A stretch of DNA of 64,000 bases from Pseudomonadales bacterium (GTDB lineage Bacteria; Pseudomonadota; Gammaproteobacteria; Pseudomonadales; UBA7434), in contig JAOIUY010000006.1 in assembly GCA_028223755.1 (NCBI GenBank), forward strand, positions 24,564 to 88,563, given 5' to 3'. A model generated the notes under the pieces. The model did no database searches, had not been told where the DNA came from, and saw nothing but the letters and a program-made list of their open reading frames with translations. The position numbers and the translations under genes were made by a program. Positions 15,970 to 41,641 of the stretch are shown here, in pieces (position 1 is the first letter of the stretch; every line of letters begins with the position of its first letter).

Positions 15970-16042
15970 TTTTTTTGCGGCTAAATCAGGTGATGGCTTT
16001 GCAATATCTACATTACCAGTTGCATGGTTTGTCTTAATATCG

Positions 16043-17227: not shown

Positions 17228-17312
17228 GAAAAGTTATGGGTTTATTTTGTAGAATAAAATCATAAATTATTTTATGTGGTGATATTTTTTTAGAGTTCCT
17301 GTCAATTATTTA

Positions 17313-18512: not shown

Positions 18513-18610
18513 ATTAAGTGGACTCTAAATTTAAGTTTTAATAACATACTCTCTTGATTTAAGAGAGTTTTTTGTTTTATATTCAAAGACTATTATAAAG
18601 GATTAAAATT

Positions 18611-19579
18611 ATGAAAAAAGCAGTTGTATGTGGCGGTGGTGGATTTATTGGTGGGCATCTTGTTAGCCGTTTAAAAGAAGAGGGTTTTTGGGTTAGAGCT
18701 GTTGATTTAAAATTCCCTGAATATAATGAAACCTCAGCAGATGACTTTATACAAGGAGATCTTCGAGATATTAAAGTCTGCGAGAGAGTTTTTGATCAGC
18801 CTTTTGATGAGGTTTATCAGTTAGCTGCTGACATGGGTGGTGCTGGTTTTGTTTTTGTTGGGGATCACGATGCTGATATTATGCATAATTCCGCAACGAT
18901 CAATTTAAATGTTTTAGAAACATGCCGCAGACGAAACATTAAACGAATTTTTTATAGCTCATCTGCATGTATGTACCCAGAGCATAATCAGATGGATCCT
19001 GATAATCCTTTATGTTCTGAAGATTCTGCTTACCCCGCTGATCCTGATAGTGAATATGGCTGGGAAAAACTTTTTAGTGAACGGTTGTTTCTAGCGTATG
19101 GTAAGAATTATGGGATGGATGTAAGAGTGGGGCGTTACCATAATATTTTTGGTCCTTATGGTACCTGGGACGGTGGCCGAGAAAAGGCCCCTGCCGCATT
19201 TTGTAGAAAAGTGGCCCAGACTGAGGATGGTGGAGAAATCGAAATGTGGGGTGATGGCCTTCAAACAAGATCTTTCCTTTATGTAGATGAATGCTTGGAA
19301 GGAAGTATAAGGTTGATGAGAAGTGACTGGACGGGCCCTGTTAATATAGGTTCTGAAGAGATGGTCTCAATCAATGATCTTGCAAATTTAATTATGGATA
19401 TTGCGGGAAAATCTCAGTCAATTAAGCGCATACCGGGCCCGCTTGGAGTTCGAGGTCGTAATTCAGATAATAAATTAATAAGTGAGAGATTAGGTTGGAA
19501 GCCAAGCGCCCCTTTGCGGGAAGGTTTAATCAAAACCTACGAGTGGATTGCGGAGGAGGTGAAGCAGGCTATAAATTAG
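18611..19579 (+). CDS. gme: GDP-mannose 3,5-epimerase homologue (SDR fold)
   Basis: Long collinear identity to recalled plant GME: LAADMGGAGF, SSACMYPE, YGWEKL, GRYHNIFGPYGTWDGGREKAPAAFCRK, EMWGDGLQTRSF, PVNIGSEEMVS, IPGPLGVRGRNSDN. Confidence 0.85.
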   Translation: MKKAVVCGGGGFIGGHLVSRLKEEGFWVRAVDLKFPEYNETSADDFIQGDLRDIKVCERVFDQPFDEVYQLAADMGGAGFVFVGDHDADIMHNSATINLNVLETCRRRNIKRIFYSSSACMYPEHNQMDPDNPLCSEDSAYPADPDSEYGWEKLFSERLFLAYGKNYGMDVRVGRYHNIFGPYGTWDGGREKAPAAFCRKVAQTEDGGEIEMWGDGLQTRSFLYVDECLEGSIRLMRSDWTGPVNIGSEEMVSINDLANLIMDIAGKSQSIKRIPGPLGVRGRNSDNKLISERLGWKPSAPLREGLIKTYEWIAEEVKQAIN

Positions 19580-19637
19580 TTAGCTTTGGTGTCAGCTTAT
19601 GTTTTAATTTTTCAATTTCTTCTTAGAGATATTTATT

Positions 19638-20657
19638 TTGAATTGCGCAGTGATTTTTGGTGGCACAGGGTTTATTGGAATCTGCTTCGCTAGATATTTA
19701 GTGGATAAAAAGCAGGTGCAAAAAGTATATCTGTACGATCATGAAGCCTTATCAACTAAGGCTTCATTTGATCGACAAAAAATGTTGGCTTCTTATTCGT
19801 GTATTAATGAAATCCATGGTGATGTCCGCCAGCCAATTGATTGGATTCCGCCAGAAACAATTACTCTTATTGCCAATTTCGCTGCAGTACATCGTGAGCC
19901 TGGCCATGTCGCAGGTGAATACTTTGAAACCAATCTTCTTGGTGCTGATAATGTTTGTAACTGGGCTGAGAAAGTAAATTGCAAAAAAATTATATTTAGT
20001 AGTTCAATTGCCCCATATGGCCCAAGTGAACATGAAAAGGATGAGTCCTTTTTGCCAGTGCCTCCAACACCATATGGTGGTTCAAAATTGGTAGCTGAGA
20101 AAATACATCAAACTTGGCAGGCTAAAGAAAGTGAAAACCGTCAGCTAGTTATTGTTAGACCGGGCGTTGTTTTTGGTCCGGGTGAGGGCGGTAATGTTTC
20201 TCGATTGATAAAAGCGGTTCGTAACCGATACTTCTTTTATACGGGCAACCAAAAAACTCGTAAGGCGGGGGTTTATGTCAAGGAGCTATGTAATGCCATG
20301 TGTTGGGTCCTTAATAGCGAAAAAGCAAAAGCAGATAAAGTAACCTTATTTAATATGACTATGAATCCTGGCCCATCCATCGAGGAGTATGTGGATACGA
20401 TTGCTAAAGTGATGGGTATCAAAATTTGGATACCAAGTATTCCTATTAAGTTATTATTAGTGGCTTCTTACTTTATTGATTTATTTGCTCGTCCTTTGGG
20501 TATCGAACATCCATTTAGTCCTGTTAGGATTAAAAAATTAACTCGTTCAAATAATATTATCCCTATGTACCTAGCGACCAATGAATATAAATATAAATAT
20601 ACTTTAGAAGAGGCGCTTATCGATTGGAAAAAAGAATGTCCCGAGGAATGGAGTTAA
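19638..20657 (+). CDS. NAD-dependent epimerase/dehydratase family protein (SDR)
   Basis: GGTGFIG Rossmann motif; PYGGSK fits the YxxxK catalytic region; TTG start. Substrate unknown. Confidence 0.7.
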   Translation: MNCAVIFGGTGFIGICFARYLVDKKQVQKVYLYDHEALSTKASFDRQKMLASYSCINEIHGDVRQPIDWIPPETITLIANFAAVHREPGHVAGEYFETNLLGADNVCNWAEKVNCKKIIFSSSIAPYGPSEHEKDESFLPVPPTPYGGSKLVAEKIHQTWQAKESENRQLVIVRPGVVFGPGEGGNVSRLIKAVRNRYFFYTGNQKTRKAGVYVKELCNAMCWVLNSEKAKADKVTLFNMTMNPGPSIEEYVDTIAKVMGIKIWIPSIPIKLLLVASYFIDLFARPLGIEHPFSPVRIKKLTRSNNIIPMYLATNEYKYKYTLEEALIDWKKECPEEWS

Positions 20658-21658
20658 TTTTTATTAAAATGCCTTATCAAAACAAAAATCACCGCTAACA
20701 TTCCGCCCAGTAAAGTGACCAACACACAAATCATTGCTCGCTTGGGTTTGGCTTCTTCTTCCGGCGCTACCGCTGGGTCAATCACTTCCAGCACATAATC
20801 CTGCCTAACATTAGCCAGCATTATTGTTTTGGTTTGCTCTTCTATTAACTGATAAAAAATGGTTTGCATGTCGGCAATCGATGTACTGTTTAATTGCTTA
20901 GTTAAATAATTAATCGTGCGCTCTGCATTGTTAAGGTCTTTGTCGCGCATATAGTTATTTAAATCTGTTACTAACCAATCAACCCATTGCTTGGCGACAT
21001 AGGGTGAGTAAAACTCAATGCCAATGTTTACCAGCCCTGTTTTTTTATCTTGCGATACGCTTAATACATCATCTATAAATAATTCGTAGGCTTCAATGTC
21101 CGAAGGCTTGGGCTTTAACGGTGCGCTGACATCTCGTACCCATTGCTTGTTCTCGACATCGTAAATATCGTTATCAATTTCTAAAGTGTTATTCGTATCA
21201 TCCCATCCGTCAGTCGCCATAAGCGGCACTAACAGCTGGTGATTATCAATAAAGGTTTTTATAAAACGTCGTGACTTTAATGTTTCAATAGCCACTGTTG
21301 TTGGGTCGGTGGCGCCATCCGATAAGTTAATGCCTGCAATACTGGCTAGGCCGCCAAATTGGCCGGCTAGTGCCGATAGGCCGCCACCTTGCGATTCGGC
21401 TGCGGGTGCGAGCAATGCTTCGGAGCGGTAAATATTGGGGAGCATTAACGCGATAATCACGGAGATAACGGCAAACACGGAGGTAATAGCAACAATGTGT
21501 AACTTACCCTGCCAAAGTGCATCCCATAATTCGCGTAAATCAATTTCATCATCAACAGCTTTATTATTATTGCCCTGCACTAAATAAACGGGTTGCATGG
21601 CCGATTCTGTTGGCGCAGTTTGAGAAGAGGGGCTGTGCTTCGATTCGTTTGTTGTCAC
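20654..21658 (-). CDS. wzz: Polysaccharide chain-length determinant (Wzz, PCP-1 type, no kinase domain)
   Basis: Wzz N-terminal motif IDLRELWDALWQGK plus TM1 and PNIYRSEALLAP; coiled periplasmic region; C-terminal TM preceded by a Pro-rich PEEEAKPKR. Confidence 0.8.
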   Translation of the reverse strand: MTTNESKHSPSSQTAPTESAMQPVYLVQGNNNKAVDDEIDLRELWDALWQGKLHIVAITSVFAVISVIIALMLPNIYRSEALLAPAAESQGGGLSALAGQFGGLASIAGINLSDGATDPTTVAIETLKSRRFIKTFIDNHQLLVPLMATDGWDDTNNTLEIDNDIYDVENKQWVRDVSAPLKPKPSDIEAYELFIDDVLSVSQDKKTGLVNIGIEFYSPYVAKQWVDWLVTDLNNYMRDKDLNNAERTINYLTKQLNSTSIADMQTIFYQLIEEQTKTIMLANVRQDYVLEVIDPAVAPEEEAKPKRAMICVLVTLLGGMLAVIFVLIRHFNKN

Positions 21659-21718
21659 GTATTTAATCCTTAAATCACGGGTTAATCTTGGTGGGGTGGT
21701 TAGTTAAAATGCCACTAT

Positions 21719-21726
21719 GGTAGCGT
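21719..21726 (+). promoter_or_regulatory. Partial ops-like element (GGTAGCGT)
   Basis: 8 contiguous nt of the 12-nt ops consensus GGCGGTAGCGTG, in the 5' region upstream of the wcaJ-like gene. Bracketed by GGGTGGT (21693-21699) and ACCACCC (21742-21748). Confidence 0.2.
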
Positions 21727-22131
21727 CTAGTCCTTCATTACACCACCCTTAGGGGGGTAAATATCTACGTAGCTTATTCATTATCATGTTGTTGATTCTT
21801 CGCCAGTTTTTTTATTAAAAACCATGGTTTTACGAGGTGCTTGCTTTAACAGCCTTCACATCAAGCTTGATAACAGCTTTTACAGCAATGCGCATAACAA
21901 ATCTCACAACAACTTTTATAACTGCTTTCATAATGGCTGTATTGGGTGGGCTATTCCTAACTCATTCAAATTCATAACATTATTATTAGTGTAAAAAAGC
22001 ACATCCATTATTGTGAGTATTTTTTGAACTAAATATAATCTGTAACCGTCTTAATATCCCTTTATTTAGTTTTTAAGCCTTTGGCCGTATATGAAATTGT
22101 GTTATAAAGCGGCAATACGGAAATACAATTT

Positions 22132-23559
22132 TTGCGGGAATGCACATTCATGCAACAAGGTTTTATAAAGCAACACCAATCGTTTTTTGCGCTGATTCAA
22201 GAACTTGCTGATGCAGCGGTTATTGGCTGTTCTTTATGGTTGGCCATTTTTATTCATGGCCGCGAGTGGTCGTATATCTACGACGTTGCTTTTGTTTCAT
22301 TTGCTCTTCTGTTCTATTTGATTGCTCGTTACAACGGCCTTTATCTATCTTGGCGTGTGCAAGGCTTTACTCAAGAGGCTTTTACGGTTTTAAAGTCGTT
22401 TGCTTCGGTATTTGTTATTCTGCTTATTATTGCTTTTGCTTTACAAGTATCCGCTACGTATTCTCGGTTAGTCATTGGTAGTTGGATGCTCATTTGTCCC
22501 GCCTTGTTATTAAGTTTTCGCTCATGCGTAAAATTATTTTTGCGCATTAAGCGTGCTTCTGGCCGCAATACGCGTACGGTAGTTATTGCTGGTGCTGGGT
22601 CATTAGGTATTGCATTAGCCGATTCCATTGAGCAAAGCCCTTGGATGGGCATTCATGTATCGGGCTTTTACGATGATAAAGTACCGCCTGGGCCCATTCA
22701 TAAATCATCTAAAGGATTGGCTATACCGGTTATTGGTTGTCTTGACCAGCTGGTGAAAGACGCTAAGACAAATAGCTATGATTCTATTTATGTTGCCTTG
22801 CCCATGCGGGCCGAAAAGAAAATGAAAAGCTTAATTCATGATTTGGCCGACAGCTCTGCTAATGTGAATTATGTGCCTGATATTTTCACGTTTAATTTAA
22901 TGAATTCGCGGATGCGCCAAATTGGTGGCATACCAACCATAAGTGTTTATGACACACCTTTCGATAGCTTTGGTCGTTTTGTTAAGCGTAGTTTAGATGT
23001 GCTGTTGTCATTATTTATTCTGACGATTATTGCTTTGCCCATGTTAGTTATTTATTGCGCAATAAAAATGGAATCGCCTGGCCCAGTAATATTTAAGCAG
23101 CGTCGTTATGGTTTAAGCGGTGATACATTTTGGGTGTGGAAGTTTCGTAGTATGTCAACGCAAGATAATGGCGACAACATTCAGCAAGCCAGCAAAAATG
23201 ATAAACGCATAACGCGTTTGGGCAGTTTTTTGCGTAAGAGTTCATTAGATGAATTACCGCAATTTATCAATGTGTTGCAAGGCACTATGTCTATTGTAGG
23301 CCCGCGGCCACACGCGGTGGCGCACAACGAGCTTTACCGACAAGAAATTGACCAATATATGTTGCGCCATATTGTTAAGCCAGGCATTACTGGTTGGGCG
23401 CAAATTAATGGTTGGCGCGGCGAAACCGACACCCCCGATAAAATGCAAAAGCGCATTGAATTCGACCTGCATTACATTCGTAATTGGTCAGTTATCCTGG
23501 ATATAAAAATTATTTTCCTCACACTTTTTAAAGGCTTTGTTAATAAAAATGCTTATTAA
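22132..23559 (+). CDS. wcaJ: Undecaprenyl-phosphate hexose-1-phosphate transferase (WcaJ/WbaP-type initiating PGT)
   Basis: Four to five N-terminal TMs, a Rossmann-like middle, and a C-terminal bacterial sugar transferase domain (KFRSM, DELPQFINVLQG.MSIVGPRP, PGITGWAQ). The start is probably at ATG 22150. Confidence 0.88.
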   Translation: MRECTFMQQGFIKQHQSFFALIQELADAAVIGCSLWLAIFIHGREWSYIYDVAFVSFALLFYLIARYNGLYLSWRVQGFTQEAFTVLKSFASVFVILLIIAFALQVSATYSRLVIGSWMLICPALLLSFRSCVKLFLRIKRASGRNTRTVVIAGAGSLGIALADSIEQSPWMGIHVSGFYDDKVPPGPIHKSSKGLAIPVIGCLDQLVKDAKTNSYDSIYVALPMRAEKKMKSLIHDLADSSANVNYVPDIFTFNLMNSRMRQIGGIPTISVYDTPFDSFGRFVKRSLDVLLSLFILTIIALPMLVIYCAIKMESPGPVIFKQRRYGLSGDTFWVWKFRSMSTQDNGDNIQQASKNDKRITRLGSFLRKSSLDELPQFINVLQGTMSIVGPRPHAVAHNELYRQEIDQYMLRHIVKPGITGWAQINGWRGETDTPDKMQKRIEFDLHYIRNWSVILDIKIIFLTLFKGFVNKNAY

Positions 23560-23982: not shown

Positions 23983-24639
23983 CTAATAAACGATGCCAAT
24001 CCCAAAGTTTATAAAGTTACCTTGCCATTCGTCATCGTTGTCATAGGCGGGCATTTTGTATTCTGCGCGCATAACGATATTACGCTTAAAATAAACCAGC
24101 ACTGGCCCGGTTAATACACGCTGTCCTGAATCAGAATCTTGTGCAGATATATCCCATAGCGTAAACCATGATGAACCTTTGCTATCGGGGTACGACCAGC
24201 CAACATTAATATCTAAACCGGTCTTGTCGCCCAGTGTGTATAAATCGAAGAGTTGATACATGGTGGGGGTTTCTGAACTGTAGCTTAGGCTTATACCTGC
24301 ATCCCAGTCATTGCCGCCATCGGTTGGCATGCGTATAGAGGGCGTAATGCTCCAGTTGTATGTTAATGGGCCTTGGTTGGTATAGCGCTTTAAAGGCACG
24401 GCAAAAATAGCGTTGCCCATTTCGCCGTTAACATAAGGTATTTTTAAGGTCATGCGCACTGCCGGCTTAAAGGTGTAAACCCCTTCAAGCCAGGTAGTGG
24501 TTTCTGAGTTGCTGTGTTCAACCCGTGATTGCACACCGTAACCTTTGTTCCAGCGCGGCGCCATATCCATAATGGGTTGATGAGCTACGGCTGTAATGGC
24601 AACGCTTGATGTGAGTAAAGCAATGAGTAAGTGTTTCAT
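23983..24639 (-). CDS. Putative small outer-membrane beta-barrel protein
   Basis: Signal peptide (..AITAVA/HQ); alternating hydrophobic/polar strands rich in Y/W/G/T; aromatic C-terminal residue (..GIGIVY). No family recognised. Confidence 0.4.
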   Translation of the reverse strand: MKHLLIALLTSSVAITAVAHQPIMDMAPRWNKGYGVQSRVEHSNSETTTWLEGVYTFKPAVRMTLKIPYVNGEMGNAIFAVPLKRYTNQGPLTYNWSITPSIRMPTDGGNDWDAGISLSYSSETPTMYQLFDLYTLGDKTGLDINVGWSYPDSKGSSWFTLWDISAQDSDSGQRVLTGPVLVYFKRNIVMRAEYKMPAYDNDDEWQGNFINFGIGIVY

Positions 24640-25085
24640 TTTTTGTCCTCTATGGGTTTAGAGGCTTTGTTCTTAATAGTGACTTCTTCTGAAGTGGTAT
24701 GAGCGTTGTTTATATGGGTAACATCTATCGGTTTATAACCACCGTCTTCTATCGCTTTAAATAATGCGGCTTTGTCTAGCCCCATATCTTCGCGGACGGT
24801 TATAAATACTCTTTGGTTTTCAACGTCTACACTAACGCCTTTGTCAAAATGCTGGGCATTAATAAAGGACAGCTTGCGTATATTTTTGGCAACGCCGTAA
24901 GCGCATAGCTCACAGACAATACCGTGTACGTTGACGACGTAATAATTTTTTGGCATTCCATTATTTGTGCCACCAAGTTGTTCTTCGACTTCATGGTCGT
25001 GGTTGTGGTCGTGATGGTGTTGAGCAAATGAAAATGGAATAAGCAGCGTATATAGCAACGCCATTGCTATGAATTTTATAAACAT
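24636..25085 (-). CDS. Periplasmic His-rich heavy-metal-associated (MerP/CopZ-like) protein
   Basis: Signal peptide; QHHHDHNHDHE tract; beta-alpha-beta-beta-alpha-beta-like domain with VHGIVCELCAYGVAKNI (CxxC); ATGA overlap with the downstream barrel gene. Confidence 0.55.
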   Translation of the reverse strand: MFIKFIAMALLYTLLIPFSFAQHHHDHNHDHEVEEQLGGTNNGMPKNYYVVNVHGIVCELCAYGVAKNIRKLSFINAQHFDKGVSVDVENQRVFITVREDMGLDKAALFKAIEDGGYKPIDVTHINNAHTTSEEVTIKNKASKPIEDKK

Positions 25086-25136: not shown

Positions 25137-25559
25137 TTAAGAAAGGTGAGTGATGGGAGGCCTAAAAAGCGGGGCGATGTTGCTGGAAATAAAGTTGAGC
25201 AATGTGTCAGCGTGTAGGTTGTTGGCCTTACTGCTAATGGGTTTGCTTAGGTTGGTGGGGATTGCTATGGCTGTGCAGCTAGCGCAGCAATTTTGGTAAT
25301 CGGTGGAAGGGGCACTATGATCGGCATCAATATTCGTATCGGTATTAACATCAGTAGCGGCATTTGCTTTGTCATTGTTGTGGCAAGGCATACTGGTTTG
25401 GGCTTTTGCGGGCTCTTCAGCCATACAGCAGGCGGCATAGCCTATGCTGGTATGCATTGCGAAGACGAATAACAGGGCTTTTATTAAAAGGCCGCGATGT
25501 CGATTAATGGCGATTGTGCTCATAGGCTTTATTGAGCGCCTAAATAACGAAAAAATCAA
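25137..25559 (-). CDS. Small exported Cys-rich protein (DUF2946-like?)
   Basis: Hydrophobic N-terminus; motifs AACC, PCH, NCCASC; D/N/T-rich linker; C-terminal ..FRPP. The likelier start is ATG 25523 (MSTIAIN). The family guess is from recall only. Confidence 0.35.
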   Translation of the reverse strand: MIFSLFRRSIKPMSTIAINRHRGLLIKALLFVFAMHTSIGYAACCMAEEPAKAQTSMPCHNNDKANAATDVNTDTNIDADHSAPSTDYQNCCASCTAIAIPTNLSKPISSKANNLHADTLLNFISSNIAPLFRPPITHLS

Positions 25560-27011: not shown

Positions 27012-30000
27012 ATGTTTGAGAAATCTTGTCTTGTCGGTTCGTTAATGACTGCACTTTTATCTTTTTGCTTAGCTATTGGGGCAAGTGTAAACGCCTATGC
27101 CTTCGATGTAGAAGCCGATAGCGTCGATAACACGGTCTATATCTTGCTGCGCAACTTAAATGCGGGCGACTCTTACGATTCTATTAGCATTAATAACGCG
27201 TCTCCGGGCATTGTGAGCAGCGCTTCGGCTAATATTATTCCGGCATCGGTTTCTGCCAGTGGCAGTGATCTTGCCTCAGTAGATTTTACGGTCTCATCCG
27301 CTGCGTTGTTGGGTGCGACGGGTGATCTTGAGATTACGGTTTCTGGCACAGTTTCCGGTCAGACGGTTGATGTTGATATTGTGGTGCCTCTTGAAGTGGT
27401 GGCTAATGTGGCCTCTGCGCAAGGGTTTGTTGGTACAGGCTTGCCGACACCGAATGCCTCGGGTGTCGATTCTGATAATGATGGCGTTAGCGACGCGCTA
27501 GAACTCGCTTTTGGTTCCGATCCTAATAATGTTGATTCTCAGCCGGGCGATCCGCTTGTCTTTATCGAAGTCAACGTTCCGATGATGGGCGTATTCGCCA
27601 CGATGGCAATGGGTCTATGTTTTCTTGTTTTTGGTTCAGCTGCTGTGCGCCGCAATGCGAGCGTATTGATGTTGGTGGCGGTGACTTTTTTACCGATGGA
27701 CTTAAATGCCGGTTCATCGACACGTATTCATTTGATTGCTGAGATTCCAATTCCGCCGCCACCGCCAGTGCTTTTATCGATTGAAAGCGCTACGGCGAGT
27801 TCACAATTAACGCCTGCAGCGTTGGCCTTTGATGGCAGTATCACTACCCGTTGGGAGTCTACCCACGGTATTGATCCGCAAACGCTTACTGTTGATTTAG
27901 GTGCAACGCATTTATTGTCAGAAGTTGTTATTCAGTGGGAAGCCGCTAATGCGGCGAGCTATCGTATTGATGGTTCGTTAGATGGCAGCAATTGGACGAC
28001 TGATTTAGCGTCTTTTTCGGGCGGTACTTGGGACCCAGGTGCGGGTGTGAGACGCACCGATACGTTGTCGCTATCAGGCAGTTATCGCTATGTGCGTATG
28101 TATGGCCTAACTCGTCCGGCGGGTAACTCTTACGGCTATTCTATTTGGGAGATTGACGTTTATGGTAATGCCATTATCGATACCGATAATGACGGTGTTG
28201 CCGATAGTGATGATCAATGTCCGAGTACACCGGCTGGCAGTGATGTTGATGCTAACGGTTGCGTTATTGTTGATACCGATAATGATGGTGTGCCCGATGC
28301 CGCAGATTTATGTTCAAACACACCGGCAGGTAGTTATGTTGATGCAAGTGGTTGTGCGATTAATGCTGTGTTGATTTCGGCAACGGCGAGCGCTAGTTCT
28401 GGTACCGGTATTGCCAGCCTTGCTGTTGATGGCAATATGGCATCTCGCTGGGCATCTGCTGCTGGCACTGATCCAAGTTGGCTGCAATTAGATTTTGGCA
28501 GTGTTTATGATTTAGCGTACGTGACGATTGACTGGGAAGCTGCGAATGCCGCGACCTATGAGATCCAAGGTTCGATGAACGGTGAAGACTGGACAATACT
28601 TGCGAGCGAGTCGGGCGGTGTTTTTGGTGATCGTACTGACACCGTCACTGTGTCGGGCATGTATCGCTATGTTCGTATGAATGGTTTAACCCGCACCAGT
28701 GTTTATGGGTATTCTATTTGGGAGATGAAAGTCTACGGCGAAGAAGCGCCTGATACCGATGGTGATGGCGTATCCGATAGCTTGGATCAGTGCCCGAATA
28801 CCACGGCTGGCAGCAGCGTGGATGCAAACGGTTGTGTTATTTTGGATAGCGATAATGACGGCGTGCCGGATAGTGCCGATCTCTGTTCGAACACAGCGGC
28901 GGATGCTCTGGTTGATGCGAACGGCTGTGAGATTATTATTTATGTGAATGAAGTTGCCTCCATCAACGGAATCTTGGCGGGTGGTTCAGGTTCTAGCCAG
29001 CCGGGCATCACGTTATATGTGTTTGATAACGACCCTGTTAATGGTGGCGTGAGTAATTGTAATGGTGGTTGTGCAACCAATTGGCCGCCACTGTTAGTGA
29101 GTGACGGTGTGCCATCGGGCGTGTCTGACTTGAGCATTGTTGTGCGAGCAGATGGTACAGAGCAAGTGGCTTATAACGGTCGACCACTGTATTACTTTAT
29201 TGCCGACTCGGCGGTGGGCGATACCAATGGCGATGGTGCGGGTGGTGTTTGGCATACAATTGCTTATGCACAGCTCTATGCGAATTTGTTTGATAACACC
29301 GCGGTGTTAGAGCCAGATACGCAATTTGAAACAGCGGATGCTTTAGTCACGCGATGGTCTGATCGTCCGCGTACTCGCCATGCGCGCGAAGCACAATATC
29401 AGTCTTATGATCATTACATTAAATTTTATTTTGAAGATCGCTCAAGCAATGTTGAAATTGTTGATTATGTTGCTAAAGGTGGCGATACCATTGAAATGAA
29501 CGTGCGGACTATTTTTCCGCTTAGCAACAGCCAAGCAGAAAACCGTTGGTGGTTTGCAAGCCCTAGTGCCAAGTACATGAGTAATACCATCATGGATTAT
29601 AAAGGCTTTGACGGGACTTATTATCACTACCAAAAAGTAGGGACAAATAACCCGCGTACAAATAGTGCTATTGCGGTGGGTGATCGTCTTGAAATTGAAA
29701 TTAGTCAATTCAGTGCGCCGGGTATTCCGCGTGGTCAGGCGAATTATTACGGCACGGTGTTTTTGTATATTGTCGGCGAAGGTATTGTGCCTTGGTATGC
29801 AGAAGCCGGTAATGAAGACAGCCAAAAAATTCCTGAAGAATATTGGCTGGGTGGTGAAACGACGATTCATTACCAGTACTCGGATGAGCCGAATGATCAT
29901 TTCTTACAGATGGCAACCAACTTAGGTTACGACAACGGTCAAAACTTTTTATTGGGTCGTCGTGTACATCACTCATCGTTTGTTAGCGGTTTGCATGATG

Positions 30001-31154
30001 AAGATCCTGCTAATGGCGTGTTAAGCAGCAATGCTGGTTTAGCGGGTACGCGTTATATTAATGAACGTTGTTCTGATTGCCATGAAAGAAATGGCAGCGC
30101 GCCGGTCGCTGATAATGGTGAATTACTTGATCGCTGGGTATTTAAAGTCGGTGATGCTAACGGTAATGAAGATCCGAACCGTGGTCATGTATTACAACCT
30201 AACGGCAGCGCGGGTGAGGGCAGTGTATCCATTGCTTCATGGACAGAGCTTGGTAATGGTTTACGCACACCTAACTACCAATTTACCGGTGGCACGCCAG
30301 CGACATTCTCTGCGCGGATTGCACCACGCTTAGTAGGTTTAGGATTGTTAGAAGCCATTATTGAATCGGATATTGAAGCACTGGCAGATCCTAATGATCT
30401 TAATAGCGATGGTATTTCGGGTCGAATGAATATTGTTGCTGATGCTGTTACCGGACAAAATCGTGTCGGTCGTTTTGGTTGGAAGGCCGCGCAGCCGACA
30501 GTTAAACAACATACCGCATCAGCATTGAGTACTGACTTGGGTGTGCGTACCTCGGTTGTACCGAATCCAGACTGTGGTTCGGCACAAACCAATTGTGGTG
30601 AAAATAGCCCACTGATGTCGGATGAAAATCTTGATAATTTAACGCTATATCTTTCTGCTTTAGGTGTTCGTCCTCAGCGCGTTTGGAAGGAAGGCGTAGA
30701 AGATCAGCAAGTATTGCAAGGCCGTGAGCTATTTAGAAATAGTGGCTGCGTAGATTGTCATACGGAGACTTTCCAGACGAGTGAATATCATCCTTTAGCC
30801 GAAGTGCGTAACCAAACCATTCACCCCTATAGCGATATGTTATTGCACGATATGGGTCCTGGACTTGCCGATAATTTAGGTGAAGGTGAGGCAACGGGTA
30901 GTGAATGGCGAACAACGCCGCTATGGGGGCTGGGCTTATCGGCTTGTGTGACAGGCGGCGTGATTAATCCTTCGGGTACAGAGGGTGGCGAGAGTTGTAC
31001 GCCGCATCATGCTTATCTTCACGATGGTCGCGCGCGTTCAATTGACGAAGCGATTAGGTGGCACGGCGGTGAAGCGGCTACTTCGCAGGCTGCTTACAGT
31101 GTTATGAGTGCCAGCGATAAGGCCTTGATGATTCGTTTCTTAGAATCGTTGTAA
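27012..31154 (+). CDS. 1380-aa exported mosaic protein: N-terminal domain, sorting-signal-like TM, 2x(F5/8 type C + 2 TSP3 repeats), YxFxxD (COG4315-like) domain, unknown ~230-aa region, DUF1111-type di-haem cytochrome c domain
   Basis: Signal peptide ..ASVNAYA. Discoidin signatures are DGSITTRWES..VDLG..YRYVRMYG and DGNMASRWAS..LDFG..YRYVRMNG. TSP3 repeats are of the DTDNDGVxDxxDxCP type. The YxFxxD domain reads LYVFDND..CNGGCATNWPP..GRPLYYF. CxxCH sites are at 30069-30083 (CSDCH) and 30747-30761 (CVDCH). DUF1111 hallmarks are GRFGWKA and YLHDGRARSIDEAIRWHGGEA. Confidence 0.8.
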   Translation: MFEKSCLVGSLMTALLSFCLAIGASVNAYAFDVEADSVDNTVYILLRNLNAGDSYDSISINNASPGIVSSASANIIPASVSASGSDLASVDFTVSSAALLGATGDLEITVSGTVSGQTVDVDIVVPLEVVANVASAQGFVGTGLPTPNASGVDSDNDGVSDALELAFGSDPNNVDSQPGDPLVFIEVNVPMMGVFATMAMGLCFLVFGSAAVRRNASVLMLVAVTFLPMDLNAGSSTRIHLIAEIPIPPPPPVLLSIESATASSQLTPAALAFDGSITTRWESTHGIDPQTLTVDLGATHLLSEVVIQWEAANAASYRIDGSLDGSNWTTDLASFSGGTWDPGAGVRRTDTLSLSGSYRYVRMYGLTRPAGNSYGYSIWEIDVYGNAIIDTDNDGVADSDDQCPSTPAGSDVDANGCVIVDTDNDGVPDAADLCSNTPAGSYVDASGCAINAVLISATASASSGTGIASLAVDGNMASRWASAAGTDPSWLQLDFGSVYDLAYVTIDWEAANAATYEIQGSMNGEDWTILASESGGVFGDRTDTVTVSGMYRYVRMNGLTRTSVYGYSIWEMKVYGEEAPDTDGDGVSDSLDQCPNTTAGSSVDANGCVILDSDNDGVPDSADLCSNTAADALVDANGCEIIIYVNEVASINGILAGGSGSSQPGITLYVFDNDPVNGGVSNCNGGCATNWPPLLVSDGVPSGVSDLSIVVRADGTEQVAYNGRPLYYFIADSAVGDTNGDGAGGVWHTIAYAQLYANLFDNTAVLEPDTQFETADALVTRWSDRPRTRHAREAQYQSYDHYIKFYFEDRSSNVEIVDYVAKGGDTIEMNVRTIFPLSNSQAENRWWFASPSAKYMSNTIMDYKGFDGTYYHYQKVGTNNPRTNSAIAVGDRLEIEISQFSAPGIPRGQANYYGTVFLYIVGEGIVPWYAEAGNEDSQKIPEEYWLGGETTIHYQYSDEPNDHFLQMATNLGYDNGQNFLLGRRVHHSSFVSGLHDEDPANGVLSSNAGLAGTRYINERCSDCHERNGSAPVADNGELLDRWVFKVGDANGNEDPNRGHVLQPNGSAGEGSVSIASWTELGNGLRTPNYQFTGGTPATFSARIAPRLVGLGLLEAIIESDIEALADPNDLNSDGISGRMNIVADAVTGQNRVGRFGWKAAQPTVKQHTASALSTDLGVRTSVVPNPDCGSAQTNCGENSPLMSDENLDNLTLYLSALGVRPQRVWKEGVEDQQVLQGRELFRNSGCVDCHTETFQTSEYHPLAEVRNQTIHPYSDMLLHDMGPGLADNLGEGEATGSEWRTTPLWGLGLSACVTGGVINPSGTEGGESCTPHHAYLHDGRARSIDEAIRWHGGEAATSQAAYSVMSASDKALMIRFLESL
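27576..27656 (+). other. Internal PEP-CTERM/IPTL-CTERM-like segment (motif, TM helix, RR) at residues 189-215 of the mosaic protein
   Basis: VPMMGVFATMAMGLCFLVFGSAAVRRN, preceded by a TSP3-like DSDNDGVSD and followed in frame by a second short hydrophobic stretch, VLMLVAVTFLPM. Confidence 0.5.
27777..28931 (+). repeat. Intragenic tandem duplication of a [discoidin + two TSP3 repeats] module
   Basis: Residues ~256-450 and ~453-640 are collinear paralogues at both protein and DNA level, for example gataccgataatgacggtgt.. versus gataccgatggtgatggcgt... Confidence 0.75.
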
Positions 31155-31516: not shown

Positions 31517-33337
31517 TTACTCGTCGAGGAAGCTGCGTAAATGATCCGAGCGCGAAGGATGACGTAATTTACGCAATGCCTTAGCTTCTATCTGACGAAT
31601 CCGCTCACGCGTTACATCAAACTGTTTGCCCACCTCTTCTAAGGTGTGGTCAGTATTCATTTCAATACCAAAACGCATTCTTAATACCTTAGCTTCACGC
31701 GCTGTTAGGCTACCTAAAACATCAGTCGTCGCATCACGTAAACTTTGATCGGTCGCCGAATCAATCGGTGAATCAACCGTACCATCTTCAATAAAGTCAC
31801 CTAGGTGCGAATCTTCGTCGTCACCAATCGGTGTTTCCATTGAGATAGGTTCTTTAGCAATCTTTAAGACTTTACGTACTTTGTCTTCGGGCATTTCCAT
31901 GCGCTCGCCTAATTCTTCTGGCGTTGGCTCGCGACCAATTTCTTGTAACATCTGACGCGAAATACGATTCAGTTTATTAATCGTTTCAATCATGTGCACT
32001 GGAATACGAATAGTCCGCGCCTGATCCGCAATCGAGCGAGTAATCGCCTGACGAATCCACCAAGTCGCATAAGTCGAGAATTTATAACCACGGCGGTATT
32101 CAAATTTATCAACCGCTTTCATTAGGCCGATGTTGCCTTCTTGAATAAGGTCAAGGAATTGCAAACCACGGTTGGTGTATTTTTTAGCAATCGAGATAAC
32201 TAGACGTAAGTTAGCTTCAACCATTTCTTTCTTGGCGCGTCGTGCACGGGCTTCACCCAGTGACATGCGACGGTTGATATCTTTAATCTCGGCAATGTTC
32301 AGCTCAACGGCTTCTTCAATGCTATTGATTTTACGCTGCGCACGAAGAATATCTTCGCGAACCATTGATAGTTTATTAGCAGAGGGTTGCTCGCCAGCTT
32401 TAATGATCTCGTCAATCCATTCGATCTCGGTCTCGTGACCCACAAACGCTTTAATAAATGTTTTGCGTGGAATCTTTGATACCTTGCAGCACAGGCGCAT
32501 AATCTCGCGCTCTTGCTCACGAACTTGATACAGCGTGACGCGAGGTGCGTTCATAACTGGATCGAGAATACGTGGGACAAGTTTTAAATATTTGAATTTC
32601 TCGCCTAGCTCAAAAAGATTTTTGACTGACGATGAGGCATCACGGCCATAACGTTTAATAGAGCGCTCGGCTTTAACGTGATACTCGGCAATTTCGTCGA
32701 AGCGCATTTTTGCTTCTTCAGGATCCGGACCATTGTCGACCACTTCATCTTCAGCTTCGCCGTTGGCGGCTTTTGCTGTTTTAGCGGCTTGGGCATCAGC
32801 AATTTCTTGCGCTGAAGGAACCGAGTCGGCTGGGTTGAGGTAGCCAATTAAAACGTCAGAGAGTTTTTTCTCTTCGGTTTCGGTTAGGGCGTACTCAATT
32901 AAAATGCTGTTAACGGCATTCGGATAGCAAGCCAAAGCCGCCATCATTTCACGAATACCTTCTTCGATACGTTTAGCGATGGCAATTTCGCCTTCGCGGG
33001 TCAGTAGCTCAACAGTACCCATTTCACGCATATACATGCGCACTGGGTCGGTGGTGCGACCGGCTTCTGTTTCTACAGCAGCAAGGGCTGCGGCAGCTTC
33101 AGCAGCGGCGATATCATCGGTAGAATCGTTTTCGGCAAGGAGTAAATCATCGGCATCGGGTGCTGTTTCAAACACCTTAATACCCATGTCGTTAATCATT
33201 TGAATGATATCTTCAACCTGATCGGGATCAGAAATATCTTCGGGTAGGTGATCGTTTACCTCGGCATAGGTTAAATACCCTTGCTCTTTCCCTCGAGTGA
33301 TTAATTCCTTAATGCGAGATTGTTTCTCGTCAGACAT
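31517..33337 (-). CDS. rpoD: RNA polymerase sigma-70
   Basis: Regions 1.1-4.2 are present, including [39 protein letters not shown] and the C-terminus RSFLDE. AGGAAG Shine-Dalgarno sequence. Confidence 0.97.
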
Positions 33338-33910
33338 GTGCTTACTTCCTGAAAAATATCAAAGCTGGTTAGTTATATTGTGTGATTTATCATTGTCTTT
33401 AGTGTATCCACACTCTAATCCAGACAAACGTGCTTACTGTCTACGGGTAGCCGATAGCGCGGTGACTTGCTCAATGCACGCTTGTTAGCTCAATAATAGT
33501 CGTTAAATAGCGTACCCAATGACTAAAACATGAATAAGCTAACAACATCACTTCCGTATTTGTACTTCTGTATATTTGTATCCGTATTTAAAACGGTGTC
33601 TTGATAATGATTTTGTGGCTCAAAGAACCAAAATAAGCATTATCGAGATATGTCTATATCGGCCTGATAGGCTTGATACGGCTAAAAATTAGCCAGACAT
33701 TATAACGTATAGTGACGAAATCGTATAACGATAAAAGGCTTTAAGGCGCAGAAAATTAGCCAAAAACGGTGATTAGCGATGAAAATAGTCGATTGAGCTG
33801 TTTTTGAGCCGATCATCAGCAGTCTAATGCTCGCATTCGTAGCTGATTGTTGCTGAATTCAGTGAGTGTTGCAGTGAGTCAGCATTTGGCGGTTTTGGCT
33901 GAGCTTAACG

Positions 33911-35791
33911 CTATTGCCTTTTGTTTAAACCAATCGATTTAAGCTTTTTTCGTTCGTCTTCGCTTAAGTCTGACAATGGTTTGAGCTCGAGTTCCGCAAG
34001 AAATTGACTCAGTTCACGACCGTCAAATTGTTCTTGGATACGCTTTAAGACATCGGCAAGCTCTTGCTCGGCAACGGCTTCTTGCTCGGAGGGTTTATGA
34101 CGGCTAGCGCAATGATTCAATGCTGCGGCTTCGGCGGTTCCATGCCAGTAGCCGAGCAGCATGCTGGTGGTGACGGCTTGTGTTTGCGCTTGAATATGAT
34201 TGAACAATTTAAGTAATAACTTAGCTTCGTCGCTATTAATGGTGGCAACACAGCTGGGCATATCACTGGTTTTAGCTAGTTGCGGATAGTGCAGTAACAA
34301 TGCAATAGCCCAGACGATGGGTGTTTTTTCTAGGCCTAGTTCAGTCGTGGCTGGCTTATTGGGGTTTGCTGTTGTCTTATTTTGCAGTTCTTTATTTGCC
34401 GCTGGTTTAATCTGCTCATTATCACTGCTACCGGCTTTTGTTAAAGCAGGTTTCTTGGCGGCGGCTAATTCTGCTTCGCGTGATTGCAATAAGCTGATAT
34501 CAGCGCCGGTCTCATTGGCTAATCGACTCAGCATTAATTGTTTGAATACGCCATGAGGCAGCTGTTGAATTAGCGGTAAAGCACTTTGACTTAACTTGGC
34601 TTTGCCAGCAACAGAGTCGAGGTTAATACCCTCGCTGGCTGTTGCAAATAAAAAGTCTTCTAGCGGCATAGCTTGGTCAACGGTGTGAAAGAAAGCTTCT
34701 TTGCCATTGCTCCGCACATAAGTGTCGGGGTCTTCGCCGTCGGGTAAGAATAAAAAGCACACCTCGCGACCATCAGACATGGCGGGCAGGGCGGTTTCAA
34801 GTAAGCGTCCTGCTGCTTTTTTACCGGCATTATCGCCATCAAAGCAAACCACTAGCTTGCTGGTATGGCGAAAGATTTTTTCAAGATGATAGATGCTGCT
34901 TGCGGTGCCGAGTGTCGCAACAGCGTTGGTAATGCCGTACTGCACCAGAGACACAACGTCCATATAGCCTTCAACCATCAACAAGTAATCGAGCTGGCGG
35001 TTGGCTTTGCGGGCTTCGTAAAGACCGTAGAGTTCGCGCTGCTTATGGAAGACGGGCGTTTCGGGTGAGTTTAAGTATTTCGGTTTATCATCATTGAGAA
35101 CGCGACCGCCAAAGGCAATAACGCGACCACGGTTATCGCGGATCGGAAAGATAATGCGCTCACGAAAGCGATCATAAAAATCGCCATTCTCTTTTTTAAC
35201 CAGCATGCCGCAGGTTTCTAGTTGAGCAATTTTTTGTTGCTGTGCTTTGTTATCGTTGTTGTCAATTGCCTGCAATAAGTTATCCCAGCCTGGTGGCGCA
35301 TAGCCAATCCCAAAATCGCGGGCGACCTCACCACTTAAGCCGCGATTTTTTAAATAATCAATGGCCTGTGTTTTATTGCTGTGTTGGCGTAACTGGATTT
35401 GAAAGTGATGCGCTGTCCATGCCAGTACATCGTAAAGACTTTGCGCTTGGCTTTTACGTTGGCGCTGTAGGTCACTGTTACCACCGCTTTCTTCGCGAGG
35501 GACCTCAAGGCCAACCATAGCCGCCAGTGATTCTACCGCGGCGGGAAAATCGACATTTTCATAATCCATGATAAAGCTGATGCTATTACCGCCGGCACCA
35601 CAGCCAAAGCAGTAGAAGAATTGTTTATCGGGATTAACACTAAAGGAAGGCGTTTTTTCTTCGTGAAATGGGCAGCAGGCCGAATAATTACGGCCACTTT
35701 TTTTCAAGCTGACGCGGCGATCGATAACCTCGACAATATCGACTCGGTCGAGCACATCATCGATAAATTGTTGAGGAATGAGTCCGGCCAT
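33911..35791 (-). CDS. dnaG: DNA primase
   Basis: Zinc ribbon CPFHEEKTPSFSV..YCFGCGAGG, TOPRIM EGYMDV, and a C-terminal DnaB-interaction domain. Confidence 0.95.
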   Translation of the reverse strand: MAGLIPQQFIDDVLDRVDIVEVIDRRVSLKKSGRNYSACCPFHEEKTPSFSVNPDKQFFYCFGCGAGGNSISFIMDYENVDFPAAVESLAAMVGLEVPREESGGNSDLQRQRKSQAQSLYDVLAWTAHHFQIQLRQHSNKTQAIDYLKNRGLSGEVARDFGIGYAPPGWDNLLQAIDNNDNKAQQQKIAQLETCGMLVKKENGDFYDRFRERIIFPIRDNRGRVIAFGGRVLNDDKPKYLNSPETPVFHKQRELYGLYEARKANRQLDYLLMVEGYMDVVSLVQYGITNAVATLGTASSIYHLEKIFRHTSKLVVCFDGDNAGKKAAGRLLETALPAMSDGREVCFLFLPDGEDPDTYVRSNGKEAFFHTVDQAMPLEDFLFATASEGINLDSVAGKAKLSQSALPLIQQLPHGVFKQLMLSRLANETGADISLLQSREAELAAAKKPALTKAGSSDNEQIKPAANKELQNKTTANPNKPATTELGLEKTPIVWAIALLLHYPQLAKTSDMPSCVATINSDEAKLLLKLFNHIQAQTQAVTTSMLLGYWHGTAEAAALNHCASRHKPSEQEAVAEQELADVLKRIQEQFDGRELSQFLAELELKPLSDLSEDERKKLKSIGLNKRQ

Positions 35792-37676: not shown

Positions 37677-38705
37677 ATGTTAGTGTTAGGTATAGAAACG
37701 TCTTGCGATGAGACGGGCATTGCTCTGTACGATACTGAGCGTGGTTTGTTGGCCGATGCACTGCATAGCCAAATTGATCTGCATGTTGAGTATGGTGGCG
37801 TAGTGCCTGAGTTGGCCTCGCGCGATCATATTCGCAAGACGCTGCCGATGATCCGCCAATTAATGGCAGAGGCCGATATTGATAAAGACGCGATTGATGG
37901 TATTGCCTACACCGCAGGTCCAGGTCTAATTGGCGCTTTATTAGTGGGGGCGTCACTGGGACGCTCGCTGGCAATGGCTTGGAATGTACCCGCAGTTGGC
38001 GTGCATCATATGGAAGGCCATTTACTGGCGCCAATGTTAGAAGATAATCCACCGGCGTTTCCTTTTGTTGCGCTATTAGTTTCCGGCGGCCATACGCAGT
38101 TAGTTGAAGTGAAACAGTTGGGTGATTACACGCTCTTAGGTGAATCGTTAGATGACGCCGCAGGTGAAGCGTTTGATAAGGCGGCTAAAATGATGGGCTT
38201 GCCTTATCCGGGCGGTCCGCAAATTGCGCGCTTAGCAAAAGATGGCGTTGAAGGGCGCTTTGATTTTCCGAGGCCAATGGTGAATCGACCTGGTTTGGAT
38301 TTTAGTTTTAGCGGACTTAAAACGTTTACTAAGAATACCATCGCGCAATGTCAGCGTGACCAATTACTTAATGAGCAAACGAAAGCAGATATTGCTCGTG
38401 CTTTTGAAGAGGCGGTGGTAAGTACGCTAACGATAAAATGTAAGCGCGCTTTAAAGCAGACGGGCTTAAAGCGACTTGTCATTGCTGGTGGCGTGAGTGC
38501 TAATCAACGGCTACGAGAATCTTTAGAAACGATGACGGCAGCGCAGCAGTCACAGGTTTATTATGCGCGACCAGAGTACTGTACCGATAACGGCGCGATG
38601 ATTGCTTTAGCAGGAGCATTGCGATTAGAAGCTGGCCATGTTGAACCGCTCGAAGTAAAAGTTAGACCACGTTGGCCGCTTGAAGAATTAGAACAGCTGG
38701 CTTGA
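37677..38705 (+). CDS. tsaD: tRNA N6-adenosine threonylcarbamoyltransferase
   Basis: [26 protein letters not shown], and GGVSAN at the C-terminal side. Confidence 0.95.
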
Positions 38706-41189: not shown

Positions 41190-41248
41190 AGTTGATAGAG
41201 GATCGTGGTTGATAGGGCGCCATAGCGATCATCTTAGAATGTCTGCGT

Positions 41249-41641
41249 TTATTGCAATGAGTTTGGATGAACTAACCCAAACGGTTTGATAATGGCGTCA
41301 AATGGCAGGCCGCTATCTGAGCACATTTTATAACTGCCTTCCATGGTACCGGTTTTGGTCGAGAGAATAGCGCCACTACTGTACTGGTAGATTTCGCCAG
41401 GTTTGATATGAGGCTGTTCGCCAACAACACCTTCACCTTCGATTTCACGAATGCTGTTGTTGCCGTCGGTAATAATCCAATGGCGTGCTAATAGTTGCAC
41501 GGCCACATCGCCAAGGTTAGCAATTTCAACGGTATAGGCGAAAGTGTATTCAGCAACCGCTTCATTGGATTGCTCGGGCAGATAGCGTGGTGTGACGTTA
41601 ACCGCAATGCTTTCTTGTAATGTGAGTTGCTCTGTATTCAT
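41249..41641 (-). CDS. apaG: ApaG protein
   Basis: About 125-aa ApaG/DUF525 fold; RHWIITDGNN..EGEGVVGEQP motif; sits between rsmA and apaH. Confidence 0.9.
   Translation of the reverse strand: MNTEQLTLQESIAVNVTPRYLPEQSNEAVAEYTFAYTVEIANLGDVAVQLLARHWIITDGNNSIREIEGEGVVGEQPHIKPGEIYQYSSGAILSTKTGTMEGSYKMCSDSGLPFDAIIKPFGLVHPNSLQ

Follow-up and report, generated by a model that had tools for sequence, protein, structure and literature searches.

A sorting-signal-like segment in the middle of a 1380-residue protein: an apparent joint between two secretion signals in a fused two-gene cassette

How can a protein carry in its middle the kind of signal that normally ends one? This question is raised by an open reading frame (ORF) of 1380 residues in a 64,000-nucleotide stretch of contig JAOIUY010000006.1 from a Pseudomonadales bacterium (the whole stretch is called the window here). 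Residues 189-215 of its product were read in a first-pass annotation as a motif, a hydrophobic helix, and an arginine pair of the type that closes PEP-CTERM and IPTL-CTERM proteins, and either a fusion or a deliberate processing or anchoring site was proposed. The comparisons described below point to a two-gene cassette whose genes were naturally fused in frame and have been kept so in evolution. The product would be a polyprotein, probably cut by signal peptidase I, and a probability of about 0.7 can be assigned to this reading. Judged from homologous sequences, the fusion is neither an error nor a pseudogene, and the mid-protein signal is a conserved and recurrent joint between two secretion signals.

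Layout of the ORF and homology of its two halves

The ORF can be divided into a leader module and a cargo, with features as follows.

27012-31154, forward strand: complete fused ORF, leader module plus cargo, uninterrupted, 1380 residues
27012-27101, forward strand: N-terminal Sec-type signal peptide, residues 1-30 (...SVNAYA/FDVE), with a hydropathy peak at residues 6-24
27102-27431, forward strand: N-domain, residues 31-140 (YDVEADS...AQGxVG), an immunoglobulin (Ig)-like beta-sandwich predicted by an AlphaFold2 (AF2) model
27459-27545, forward strand: bacterial TSP3 repeat of the calcium-binding type, residues ~150-178 (DSDNDGVSDALELAFGSDP), Pfam PF18884 at 153-173
27576-27590, forward strand: signature motif VPMMG, consensus [VI]-P-x-x-G, ahead of helix 1, with P190 and G193 invariant
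27582-27647, forward strand: helix 1, residues 191-212, with a predicted periplasm-to-cytoplasm direction (hydropathy; AF2 helix 191-207)
27648-27656, forward strand: RRN, residues 213-215, a predicted cytoplasmic turn, unchanged at the protein level in orthologous loci L007 and L008
27657-27710, forward strand: predicted internal signal peptide (helix 2), with h-region ASVLMLVAVTFL (residues 216-227) and c-region PMDLNA (228-233)
27711-27749, forward strand: conserved motif opening the mature cargo, GSSTRIHLIAEIP, residues 234-246, a predicted beta-strand (AF2 strand 238-245)
27747-27764, forward strand: proline-rich linker PIPPPP, residues 246-251
27765-31154, forward strand: cargo, made up of two F5/8 type C domains, TSP3 repeats, two Lipoprotein_15 repeats, and, at the C terminus, a di-haem oxidoreductase (DHOR) domain

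The segment in question (residues 189-215, nucleotides 27576-27656) reads VPMMGVFATMAMGLCFLVFGSAAVRRN and consists of VPMMG, a 22-residue hydrophobic helix, and RRN. A 12-residue hydrophobic stretch and PMDLNA come directly after RRN, residues 216-233 (27657-27710) reading ASVLMLVAVTFLPMDLNA and leading into GSSTRIHLIAEIPIPPPPP. Together with the N-terminal signal peptide, the two mid-protein hydrophobic stretches give the top Kyte-Doolittle windows of the entire protein (over 19 residues, 2.09 at 194-212, 2.09 at 6-24, and 1.54 at 216-234); over 11 residues the maximum is 2.64 at 217-227. The ORF reading, the hydropathy, and the alignment with stand-alone C-termini described below all bear out the motif-helix-Arg layout. 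It was also correctly noted that the frame runs on without interruption into TSP3 repeats and haem c sites: along the 1380-residue protein, Pfam recognises TSP3_bac at 153-173, a pair of F5/8 type C domains, TSP_3 repeats, a pair of Lipoprotein_15 repeats, and, at 1100-1380, a C-terminal DHOR, and CxxCH haem sites are present at residues 1020 (CSDCH) and 1246 (CVDCH).

Evidence for the origin of the stranded signal comes from proteins that correspond to the leader alone. Residues 1-260 as a query retrieve 39 homologues (E 1e-57 to 1e-13), nearly all of which are 210-218 residues long. For about 35 stand-alone proteins of this length, the homology to residues 1-215 has E values of 1e-40 to 1e-57. 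When aligned, they share the signal peptide, the YDVEADS...AQGxVG domain, the DxDxDGxxDxxE repeat, VPxL/M at the position equivalent to VPMMG, a hydrophobic helix of ~20 residues, and an Arg cluster, and they end 5-15 residues later. The signal stranded in the window is therefore homologous to genuine C-termini, and because the alignment with these termini holds column for column, residues 189-215 are not a chance pattern. By this homology, the N-domain is the body of a small partner protein and helix 1 is its former C-terminal anchor helix. The N-domain family is named in none of the curated libraries searched.

An AF2 model built from 19 sequences (predicted local distance difference test score, pLDDT, 72.8), comprises the beta-sandwich at 31-138, a helix-turn-helix at 191-232 (191-207 plus 210-232), and a strand at 238-245. 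The strands over 31-138 form a block with a pLDDT of 74-89, and ahead of the first one is a helix at 5-23 with an equivalent segment in all homologues. A Foldseek search of the PDB gave weak, generic Ig-like matches (best E 1.2e-3); many of the weak matches are PapD-like pilus chaperones, which are not taken as evidence of function. Within the TSP3 repeat, D153, D155, D157, G158, and D161 are invariant in the alignment of fused orthologues.

The second hydrophobic stretch has a different origin. Residues 216-233 line up, without a shift in register, with the signal peptides that open the products of unfused cargo genes, a homology by which the earlier description of VLMLVAVTFLPMDLNA as signal-peptide-like proves right. 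Residues 213-233 combine the features of such a peptide, with RRN as n-region, the 12-residue h-region, and PMDLNA as c-region, and the predicted signal peptidase I site lies after A233, between nucleotides 27710 and 27711. Signal peptidase I sites follow the AxA rule (PMC3509430), and in all 19 aligned fused orthologues position -1 is A, S, or G and position -3 is L, M, I, A, S, or T. A Sec signal peptide is expected at the N terminus, and in the window this segment is internal; its homologous counterpart is N-terminal in the unfused cargos. In all unfused partner genes examined, the signal peptide leads straight into the motif of residues 234-246, and a proline-rich stretch follows that motif in most fused orthologues (P248 is invariant, and P250 is present in at least 90%).

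Split and fused forms of the cassette

A comparison of orthologous loci, which had been proposed as a check for the presence of two genes, was carried out on nine contigs representing six cassettes: L001-L003 (P0004), L004-L006 (P0007), L011, L012, L013/L014 (P0028), and L015. Separate genes, mostly with an ATGA overlap, are found in these split loci. In eight of the nine contigs (five cassettes), the next gene begins 4 nucleotides before the stop of the small gene, and in L012 it begins 2 nucleotides past it. Their recurrence in at least nine independent contigs, mostly with clean ATGA overlaps, makes it unlikely that the split loci are artefacts of assembly or of frameshifts. The partner genes encode a signal peptide and then G(S)xTRIQLVAEIP, which is the motif that follows LNA in the window. 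With a slash between signal peptide and motif, the partner starts read MSGRRHLHALGLAVVMLLAATHAHG/GSATRIQLLAEIP in L001, ...THAHA/GSPTRIQLVAEIP in L004, ...PASYG/ATRIQLVAEIP in L011, ...PATVFA/GSPVRIQLVEGI in L012, and MIYSRVRALCALLVLLLPLSVLG/GDPIRIQLVVDIPVPPPIPP in L013.

The cargo in L001, L004, L011, and L015 is an Abhydrolase/DUF7379 protein of ~786-792 residues, that in L012 combines F5/8 with GH16, and that in L013 matches the window in its architecture, with F5/8, TSP3, Lipoprotein_15, and a region of DHOR type. The suggestion that an upstream sorted protein was joined to a downstream secreted protein is thus upheld, since split versions exist and one of them, L013, carries the cargo architecture of the window. 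The split cassettes with Abhydrolase/DUF7379 always include a third, tightly linked gene for an ankyrin-repeat protein of ~784-796 residues (L001 11008-13374; L004 10999-13359; L011 9987-12341; L015 10095-12485), which is absent from the window locus.

The sequence G-S-x-T-R-I-Q/H-L-[IV]-A-E-I-P always directly follows the signal peptide of the cargo, be that peptide internal or N-terminal, and it does so whether the cargo is DHOR, GH3, GH16, Abhydrolase/DUF7379, or CarboxypepD_reg (window 27711-27749; L001 8642-8760; L004 8636-8750; L011 7630-7740; L012 8020-8130; L013 1993-2100). In this family, a tail-anchored secreted protein always comes with a cargo that opens with an invariant motif, the two being encoded either by adjacent genes or by one fused gene. 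The N-domain family is rare, with roughly 45-50 clusters at 50% identity among 1.84 billion representatives, and because about 6-8 of these are fused, the split form is the commoner and probably the ancestral one.

The fused form is nevertheless well represented. An uninterrupted frame is seen in more than 30 fused orthologues (43-90% identity), and the assemblies that they come from are independent. With the full-length query, fused orthologues are retrieved at 50-90% identity, including P0040 (1381 residues, 90%), P0044, P0045, and P0046 (1375-1383 residues, 55-57%), as well as P0043, P0047-52, P0054, P0065, P0070, and others. Two species-representative metagenome-assembled genomes (MAGs), L007 and L008, also carry an uninterrupted frame and keep that of the window; the former is from a Cellvibrionales bacterium and has the rpoD synteny of the window. 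A scan of a genome collection with a single protein as query returned only two loci. A scan for GSxTRI[QH] found 33 database proteins, with the leader module upstream in 29 of them. Cargos on the fused leader include DHOR, F5/8-only (~1115 residues), CarboxypepD_reg, GH3, and GH16 (P0163). A uniform ORF among orthologues had been named earlier as grounds against a fusion; the close orthologues do show one, but more distant relatives are split, and the objection falls away.

Conservation around the junction is uneven. In the alignment of 19 fused leaders, P190, G193, G234, R238, I239, P246, and P248 are invariant, and a basic cluster at the position of RRN is kept in most orthologues. When codons of the window were compared with those of L007 and L008, 11-12 of 19 helix 1 core codons carried nonsynonymous changes, always with hydrophobicity kept. 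By contrast, the PMDLNA codons show 0-1 nonsynonymous versus 2-4 synonymous changes, and the GSxTRIHLIAEIP... codons show 1-3 versus 4-5. By this codon pattern, the c-region and the GSxTRIH motif are under purifying selection, and hydrophobic residues replace each other freely in helix 1.

The junction also bears on how often the two forms have been interchanged. Most fused proteins cluster together in a neighbor-joining tree of the N-domain, but the fused P0046 groups with the unfused P0028/P0033 in 50 of 50 bootstraps, its N-domain being 66-67% identical to theirs versus 56% to its best fused match. Furthermore, the P0046 junction keeps the entire tail plus a relic Met-Arg (...GFGNGGAV-MRTPLGILVITLAVLSTQNSIS/GSAVRIQ), and its DNA reads GCG GTA ATG CGC versus GCG TCA TGA TTT in the split L013, as would be expected from a one-nucleotide shift at the ATGA overlap. 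Because P0046 has this grouping and keeps this relic, fusion or fission took place at least twice, and repeated fusion argues that the two forms are functionally equivalent. In split loci, the counterpart of RRN is RRR, a tail of 5-15 residues, and the Met/Arg-rich start of the next gene; by this correspondence, RRN does double duty, giving the tail anchor its basic cluster and the signal peptide after it an n-region. A TGATG at 27666-27670 was considered as a relic stop/start overlap in another frame and was dropped, as the orthologue alignment shows an in-frame, conserved junction, and no frameshift is therefore needed in the window.

Stand-alone cargos, each equipped with a signal peptide, include P0081, P0085-87, and the partner encoded in L013, and in P0081 and P0085-87 the homologue of helix 2 serves as the N-terminal signal peptide. 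Two of these, P0085 (L009 6001-9078) and P0087 (L010 6001-9063), were checked for a small gene upstream, and none was found there. Both retain a helix 1 stub and RRK/NRK before the signal peptide, as in the stand-alone DHOR cargo start LALVLAGVTCRRK-TSVLAVIAILLLPLNLFA/GSTRIQ, and they look like derivatives of fused genes from which the leader domain was lost later.

Several consequences follow for work on such genes. The fused form offers a clean, testable example of a secreted bacterial protein with a signal peptide in an internal position, and split and fused forms with the same cargo provide a natural experiment on how a sorting signal and a signal peptide are tolerated back to back. ORFs of this kind should not be annotated as frameshifted or as pseudogenes. 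Likewise, the leader module should be separated from the enzyme when localisation is predicted for carbohydrate-active and haem enzymes of marine Cellvibrionales-type bacteria.

Probable processing of the fused chain and competing explanations

The cassette that accounts for these observations has two genes, which most relatives keep separate. Gene A encodes a small secreted protein made up of a signal peptide, a predicted Ig-like beta-sandwich, one calcium-binding TSP3 repeat, and a tail of [VI]PxxG, a transmembrane (TM) helix, and an Arg cluster, and gene B encodes a Sec-secreted cargo enzyme with the mature N terminus G-S-x-T-R-I-Q-L-[IV]-A-E-I-P. A one-nucleotide shift at the ATGA overlap could remove the stop and bring the ATG of gene B into frame, and in the lineage of the window the junction has been trimmed, so that RRN serves both the tail of A and the signal peptide of B. 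During export, the N-terminal signal peptide would carry the N-domain out, helix 1 (191-212) would cross the inner membrane from outside to inside and leave RRN in the cytoplasm, in keeping with the positive-inside rule, and helix 2 (216-227), with its Pro/Asp-containing c-region, would re-export the chain as an internal signal peptide. Such a hairpin appears to be the only topology that places the calcium-binding and haem c parts both outside the cytoplasm.

Deliberate processing at this internal site, one of the options raised at the outset, is likely. Cleavage by signal peptidase I after L-N-A233 is the most likely event because the conserved small-x-small site is placed as in the signal peptides of the split partners. 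It would release a cargo of 1147 residues with a GSxTRI(Q/H) N terminus, as in the split systems, and leave the small protein in the membrane, held by the hairpin. The fused gene would then specify a polyprotein that delivers two partners at 1:1.

The closest functional analogy is a polyprotein that signal peptidase splits at an internal signal peptide. FbcH of Bradyrhizobium, the cytochrome b-c1 precursor, is a polyprotein split in this way. Viral glycoprotein polyproteins are a further example (PMC7926653). Like these precursors, the window protein has a TM segment followed by a signal peptide that is internal and ends in a small-x-small site, and two extracytoplasmic or membrane products would come from a single ORF. 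Unlike them, both of its halves are secreted and are separate overlapping genes in relatives, its upstream half has a sorting-signal-like tail, and its cleavage is predicted. The split cassettes of marine and environmental bacteria (L001, L004, L011, L012, L013, L015) resemble the window in the N-domain, the TSP3 repeat, the VPxL-TM-RR tail, and the signal peptide followed by a GSxTRIQLVAEIP cargo start; they differ in having two genes with a stop codon and ATGA overlap, a tail that extends 5-15 residues longer past the Arg cluster, and a signal peptide with its own Met and n-region. Nothing describing the cassette was found in literature on IPTL-CTERM, XrtH, internal sorting signals, and FbcH, and the pairing of a small protein with a TRIQ-motif cargo appears undescribed.

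Some considerations weigh against a fusion product that is cut by signal peptidase I. The cleavage site is predicted from homology and the -3/-1 rule, and to our knowledge cleavage by this enzyme at an internal signal that follows a TM helix has been documented in few bacterial proteins. In the AF2 model, helix 2 spans 23 residues (210-232) and is long enough for a stable second TM helix. In addition, the conserved [VI]PxxG would be superfluous for a hairpin and signal peptidase, which hints at an additional processing enzyme.

In an unlikely alternative, the hairpin is never cut, the two helices anchor the entire 1380-residue protein permanently in the inner membrane, and both parts face the periplasm. 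The consecutive AF2 helices (191-207 and 210-232) agree with this arrangement, the RR turn fits the positive-inside rule, and cleavage at A233 is a sequence prediction. However, the h-region of helix 2 has only 12 residues, which is short for a stable TM segment, and it is followed by Pro, Asp, and the conserved small-x-small site. Helix 2 is also homologous to the N-terminal signal peptides of unfused, released cargos, and purifying selection acts more strongly on the c-region than on the cores of the helices. Moreover, recurrent fusion and fission implies that the two forms yield equivalent products.

The motif ahead of helix 1 raises a second alternative, in which a dedicated membrane enzyme, exosortase-like or of the IPTL-CTERM type, cuts at [VI]PxxG and moves the N-domain to a cell-surface acceptor, either in place of signal peptidase I or in addition to it. 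Such a cut has been proposed for the NCBIfam family midcut-by-XrtH. The invariance of P190 and G193, for which a plain TM anchor has no need, speaks for such an enzyme, and suggests that the motif is recognised by something. The same is true of the tripartite layout, since a motif, a TM helix, and a basic cluster define LPXTG, PEP-CTERM, and GlyGly-CTERM signals (PMC3237569), and VPMMG, residues 191-212, and RRN reproduce it, with P and G invariant in 19 orthologues. The systems compared (PEP-CTERM/exosortase, IPTL-CTERM [TIGR04174], GlyGly-CTERM/rhombosortase, and LPXTG/sortase) likewise combine a short motif, a TM stretch of ~20 residues, and a basic cluster, and place them at the extreme C terminus, as do the unfused homologues. 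In contrast, the window segment occupies residues 189-215 of 1380 with 1165 residues following it, its motif is [VI]PxxG rather than PEP, IPTL, or GG, and the window showed neither a sorting enzyme among its ORFs of at least 180 residues nor paralogous signal-bearing proteins.

Searches with curated models clarify the class assignment. NCBIfam models were run against ten stand-alone homologues and seven orthologue segments as well as against the window protein and segments of its junction. Neither the full window protein nor the 80-residue junction segment gave a match even at E<=10, and the 40-residue segment likewise gave none. Homologues scored 8.9-14.1 bits with IPTL_CTERM (TIGR04174), below the cut-off of 20.5 bits, although the alignment extends across all 27 profile positions in P0003, P0007, and P0011; other sub-threshold scores were 13.5 bits for MYXO-CTERM and 9.9 bits for JDVT-CTERM. 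With midcut_by_XrtH (NF033207; cut-off 45 bits), relatives scored 13-20.6 bits (best P0004, 20.6) and fused-orthologue segments 13.1-15.9 bits, the match on the helix 1 segment of relatives falling at profile positions 31-67. Membership of a curated CTERM sorting class was rejected on these sub-threshold matches. Thus, the resemblance to PEP-CTERM and IPTL-CTERM signals that was first noticed holds for the tripartite layout, but the assignment to that class does not, as the window has no hidden Markov model (HMM) match and its relatives remain below threshold.

The midcut-by-XrtH family deserves separate comparison because it is named for a sorting-signal-like region in mid-protein. Its members are small proteins encoded beside the exosortase XrtH. 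The profile has 175 positions, whereas the window encodes a multidomain enzyme of 1380 residues without XrtH nearby, its neighbours being an RluF-like pseudouridine synthase upstream and rpoD/dnaG downstream, and the internal position in the window is explained by fusion to a signal peptide.

Taken together, these data leave cleavage at [VI]PxxG doubtful. In its favor are also the sub-threshold scores of relatives (IPTL_CTERM 13.7-14.1 bits; midcut_by_XrtH 13-20.6 bits) and a canonical PEP-CTERM protein (...AIVPEPTSALLIGLGLIGLGRVRR*) encoded at L004 1016-1681 on the reverse strand, 7 kb upstream of the split cassette in that MAG, so that at least that organism has an exosortase-type system. 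On the other side, no curated sorting-signal HMM reaches its cut-off, Pfam and NCBIfam reveal no exosortase, rhombosortase, or CAAX-type protease among the 42 ORFs of at least 180 residues in the 64-kb window, and a tail of this kind closes none of the other ORFs in the window; in the fetched loci, only the small proteins themselves have one. The 'midcut' family name is, in addition, itself a prediction. The tail of the L004 small protein, VPAM-TM-RR, resembles PEP-CTERM without the second proline.

A broader proposal concerns what the small protein does. In the sequences compared, GSxTRI(Q/H) acts like a tag that marks partners of the small protein. The two strictly occur together on unrelated cargos, which raises the more speculative idea that the small protein may bind this strand and may serve the cargo as a tether or escort at the envelope. 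The AF2 strand at 238-245 needs a partner and the sandwich is the only other beta structure in the model, which leads to the hypothesis that the cargo strand might dock on the small protein. Extended further, the 235-residue leader could be a portable and hitherto undescribed envelope-tethering system, with a small Ig-like, calcium-binding protein as anchor, a new [VI]PxxG-TM-Arg signal and its own sorting enzyme, donor-strand-like capture of the invariant strand at the cargo N terminus, and 1:1 loading by way of the polyprotein. This larger scheme is improbable as a whole; if true, it would give marine polysaccharide degraders a modular surface display of GH3, GH16, hydrolase, and di-haem enzymes.

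The two weakest explanations deny a fusion product altogether. Internal translation from Met220 (ATG 27669-27671), which would produce the cargo separately and make the fusion only apparent, is very improbable. Codons TTG, ATG, TTG, and GTG do stand in frame at residues 219-222, and the P0046 junction does hold a relic Met-Arg; however, there is no Shine-Dalgarno-like sequence within 20 nucleotides upstream (cgcaatgcgagcgtattg), a signal peptide starting at Met220 would have no positively charged n-region, and Met220 is not conserved among orthologues. An artefact or pseudogene, with a stop lost in this genome only through an indel or a recent inactivating mutation, can be set aside almost entirely, for although one nucleotide at the ATGA overlap would suffice, the sequencing error or stop loss suspected earlier is refuted by the more than 30 orthologues, down to 43% identity, that keep the frame and conserve the junction motifs with synonymous changes, and re-sequencing is therefore unnecessary.

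The cargo enzyme and its chromosomal setting

The C-terminal DHOR domain (PF06537) scores 191.4 bits against a Pfam gathering cut-off of 22, and both CxxCH haem c sites are present. The model aligns only over profile positions 213-499 (residues 1100-1380), and no Pfam model covers the region of the first haem site (CSDCH, residue 1020) and the ~300 residues before it. The oxidoreductase is thus divergent in its N-terminal half. The uncovered region corresponds to 29300-30310 in the window, or about residues 765-1100. Proteins of ~1000-1250 residues that combine DHOR/DUF1111 with discoidin and Lipoprotein_15 domains in identical order are common in Cellvibrionales-type bacteria; unlike the window protein, most of these begin with a conventional signal peptide or with different leader domains and lack the 235-residue leader module.

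The ORFs of at least 180 residues in the window include an exopolysaccharide (EPS)/capsule cluster, CopZ/CopL-like and rluF-like genes, rpoD, dnaG, tsaD, cca, surA, lptD, trpEGDC, crp, and ptsP. The large EPS cluster lies at 7894-23559, 3.5 kb upstream of the fused gene, and encodes Wzi, a Wza-like exporter, ManC, a pyruvyl transferase, a flippase, a GT4 glycosyltransferase, two epimerases, Wzz, and an initiating sugar transferase, as well as a 394-residue ORF (16043-17227) with no family match. Exosortase systems are often linked to EPS loci, and despite this cluster no exosortase was found among the ORFs of that size in the 64 kb. Two small genes on the reverse strand, 24636-25085 and 25137-25559, lie between the cluster and the rluF-like gene; one product is His-rich and HMA/CopZ-like (sub-threshold, 21 bits), and the other is CopL-family-like (25 bits, cut-off 40).

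Core chromosomal genes in a conserved gammaproteobacterial order occupy 31517-35791 (reverse strand), 37677-38705 (forward strand), and 39127-47491 (reverse strand), and include rpoD, dnaG, tsaD, cca, an apaH-like gene, rsmA/ksgA, pdxA, surA, and lptD. With these surroundings, the fused gene is chromosomal rather than part of a mobile element. The rpoD neighbour is also present in the Cellvibrionales MAG L007.

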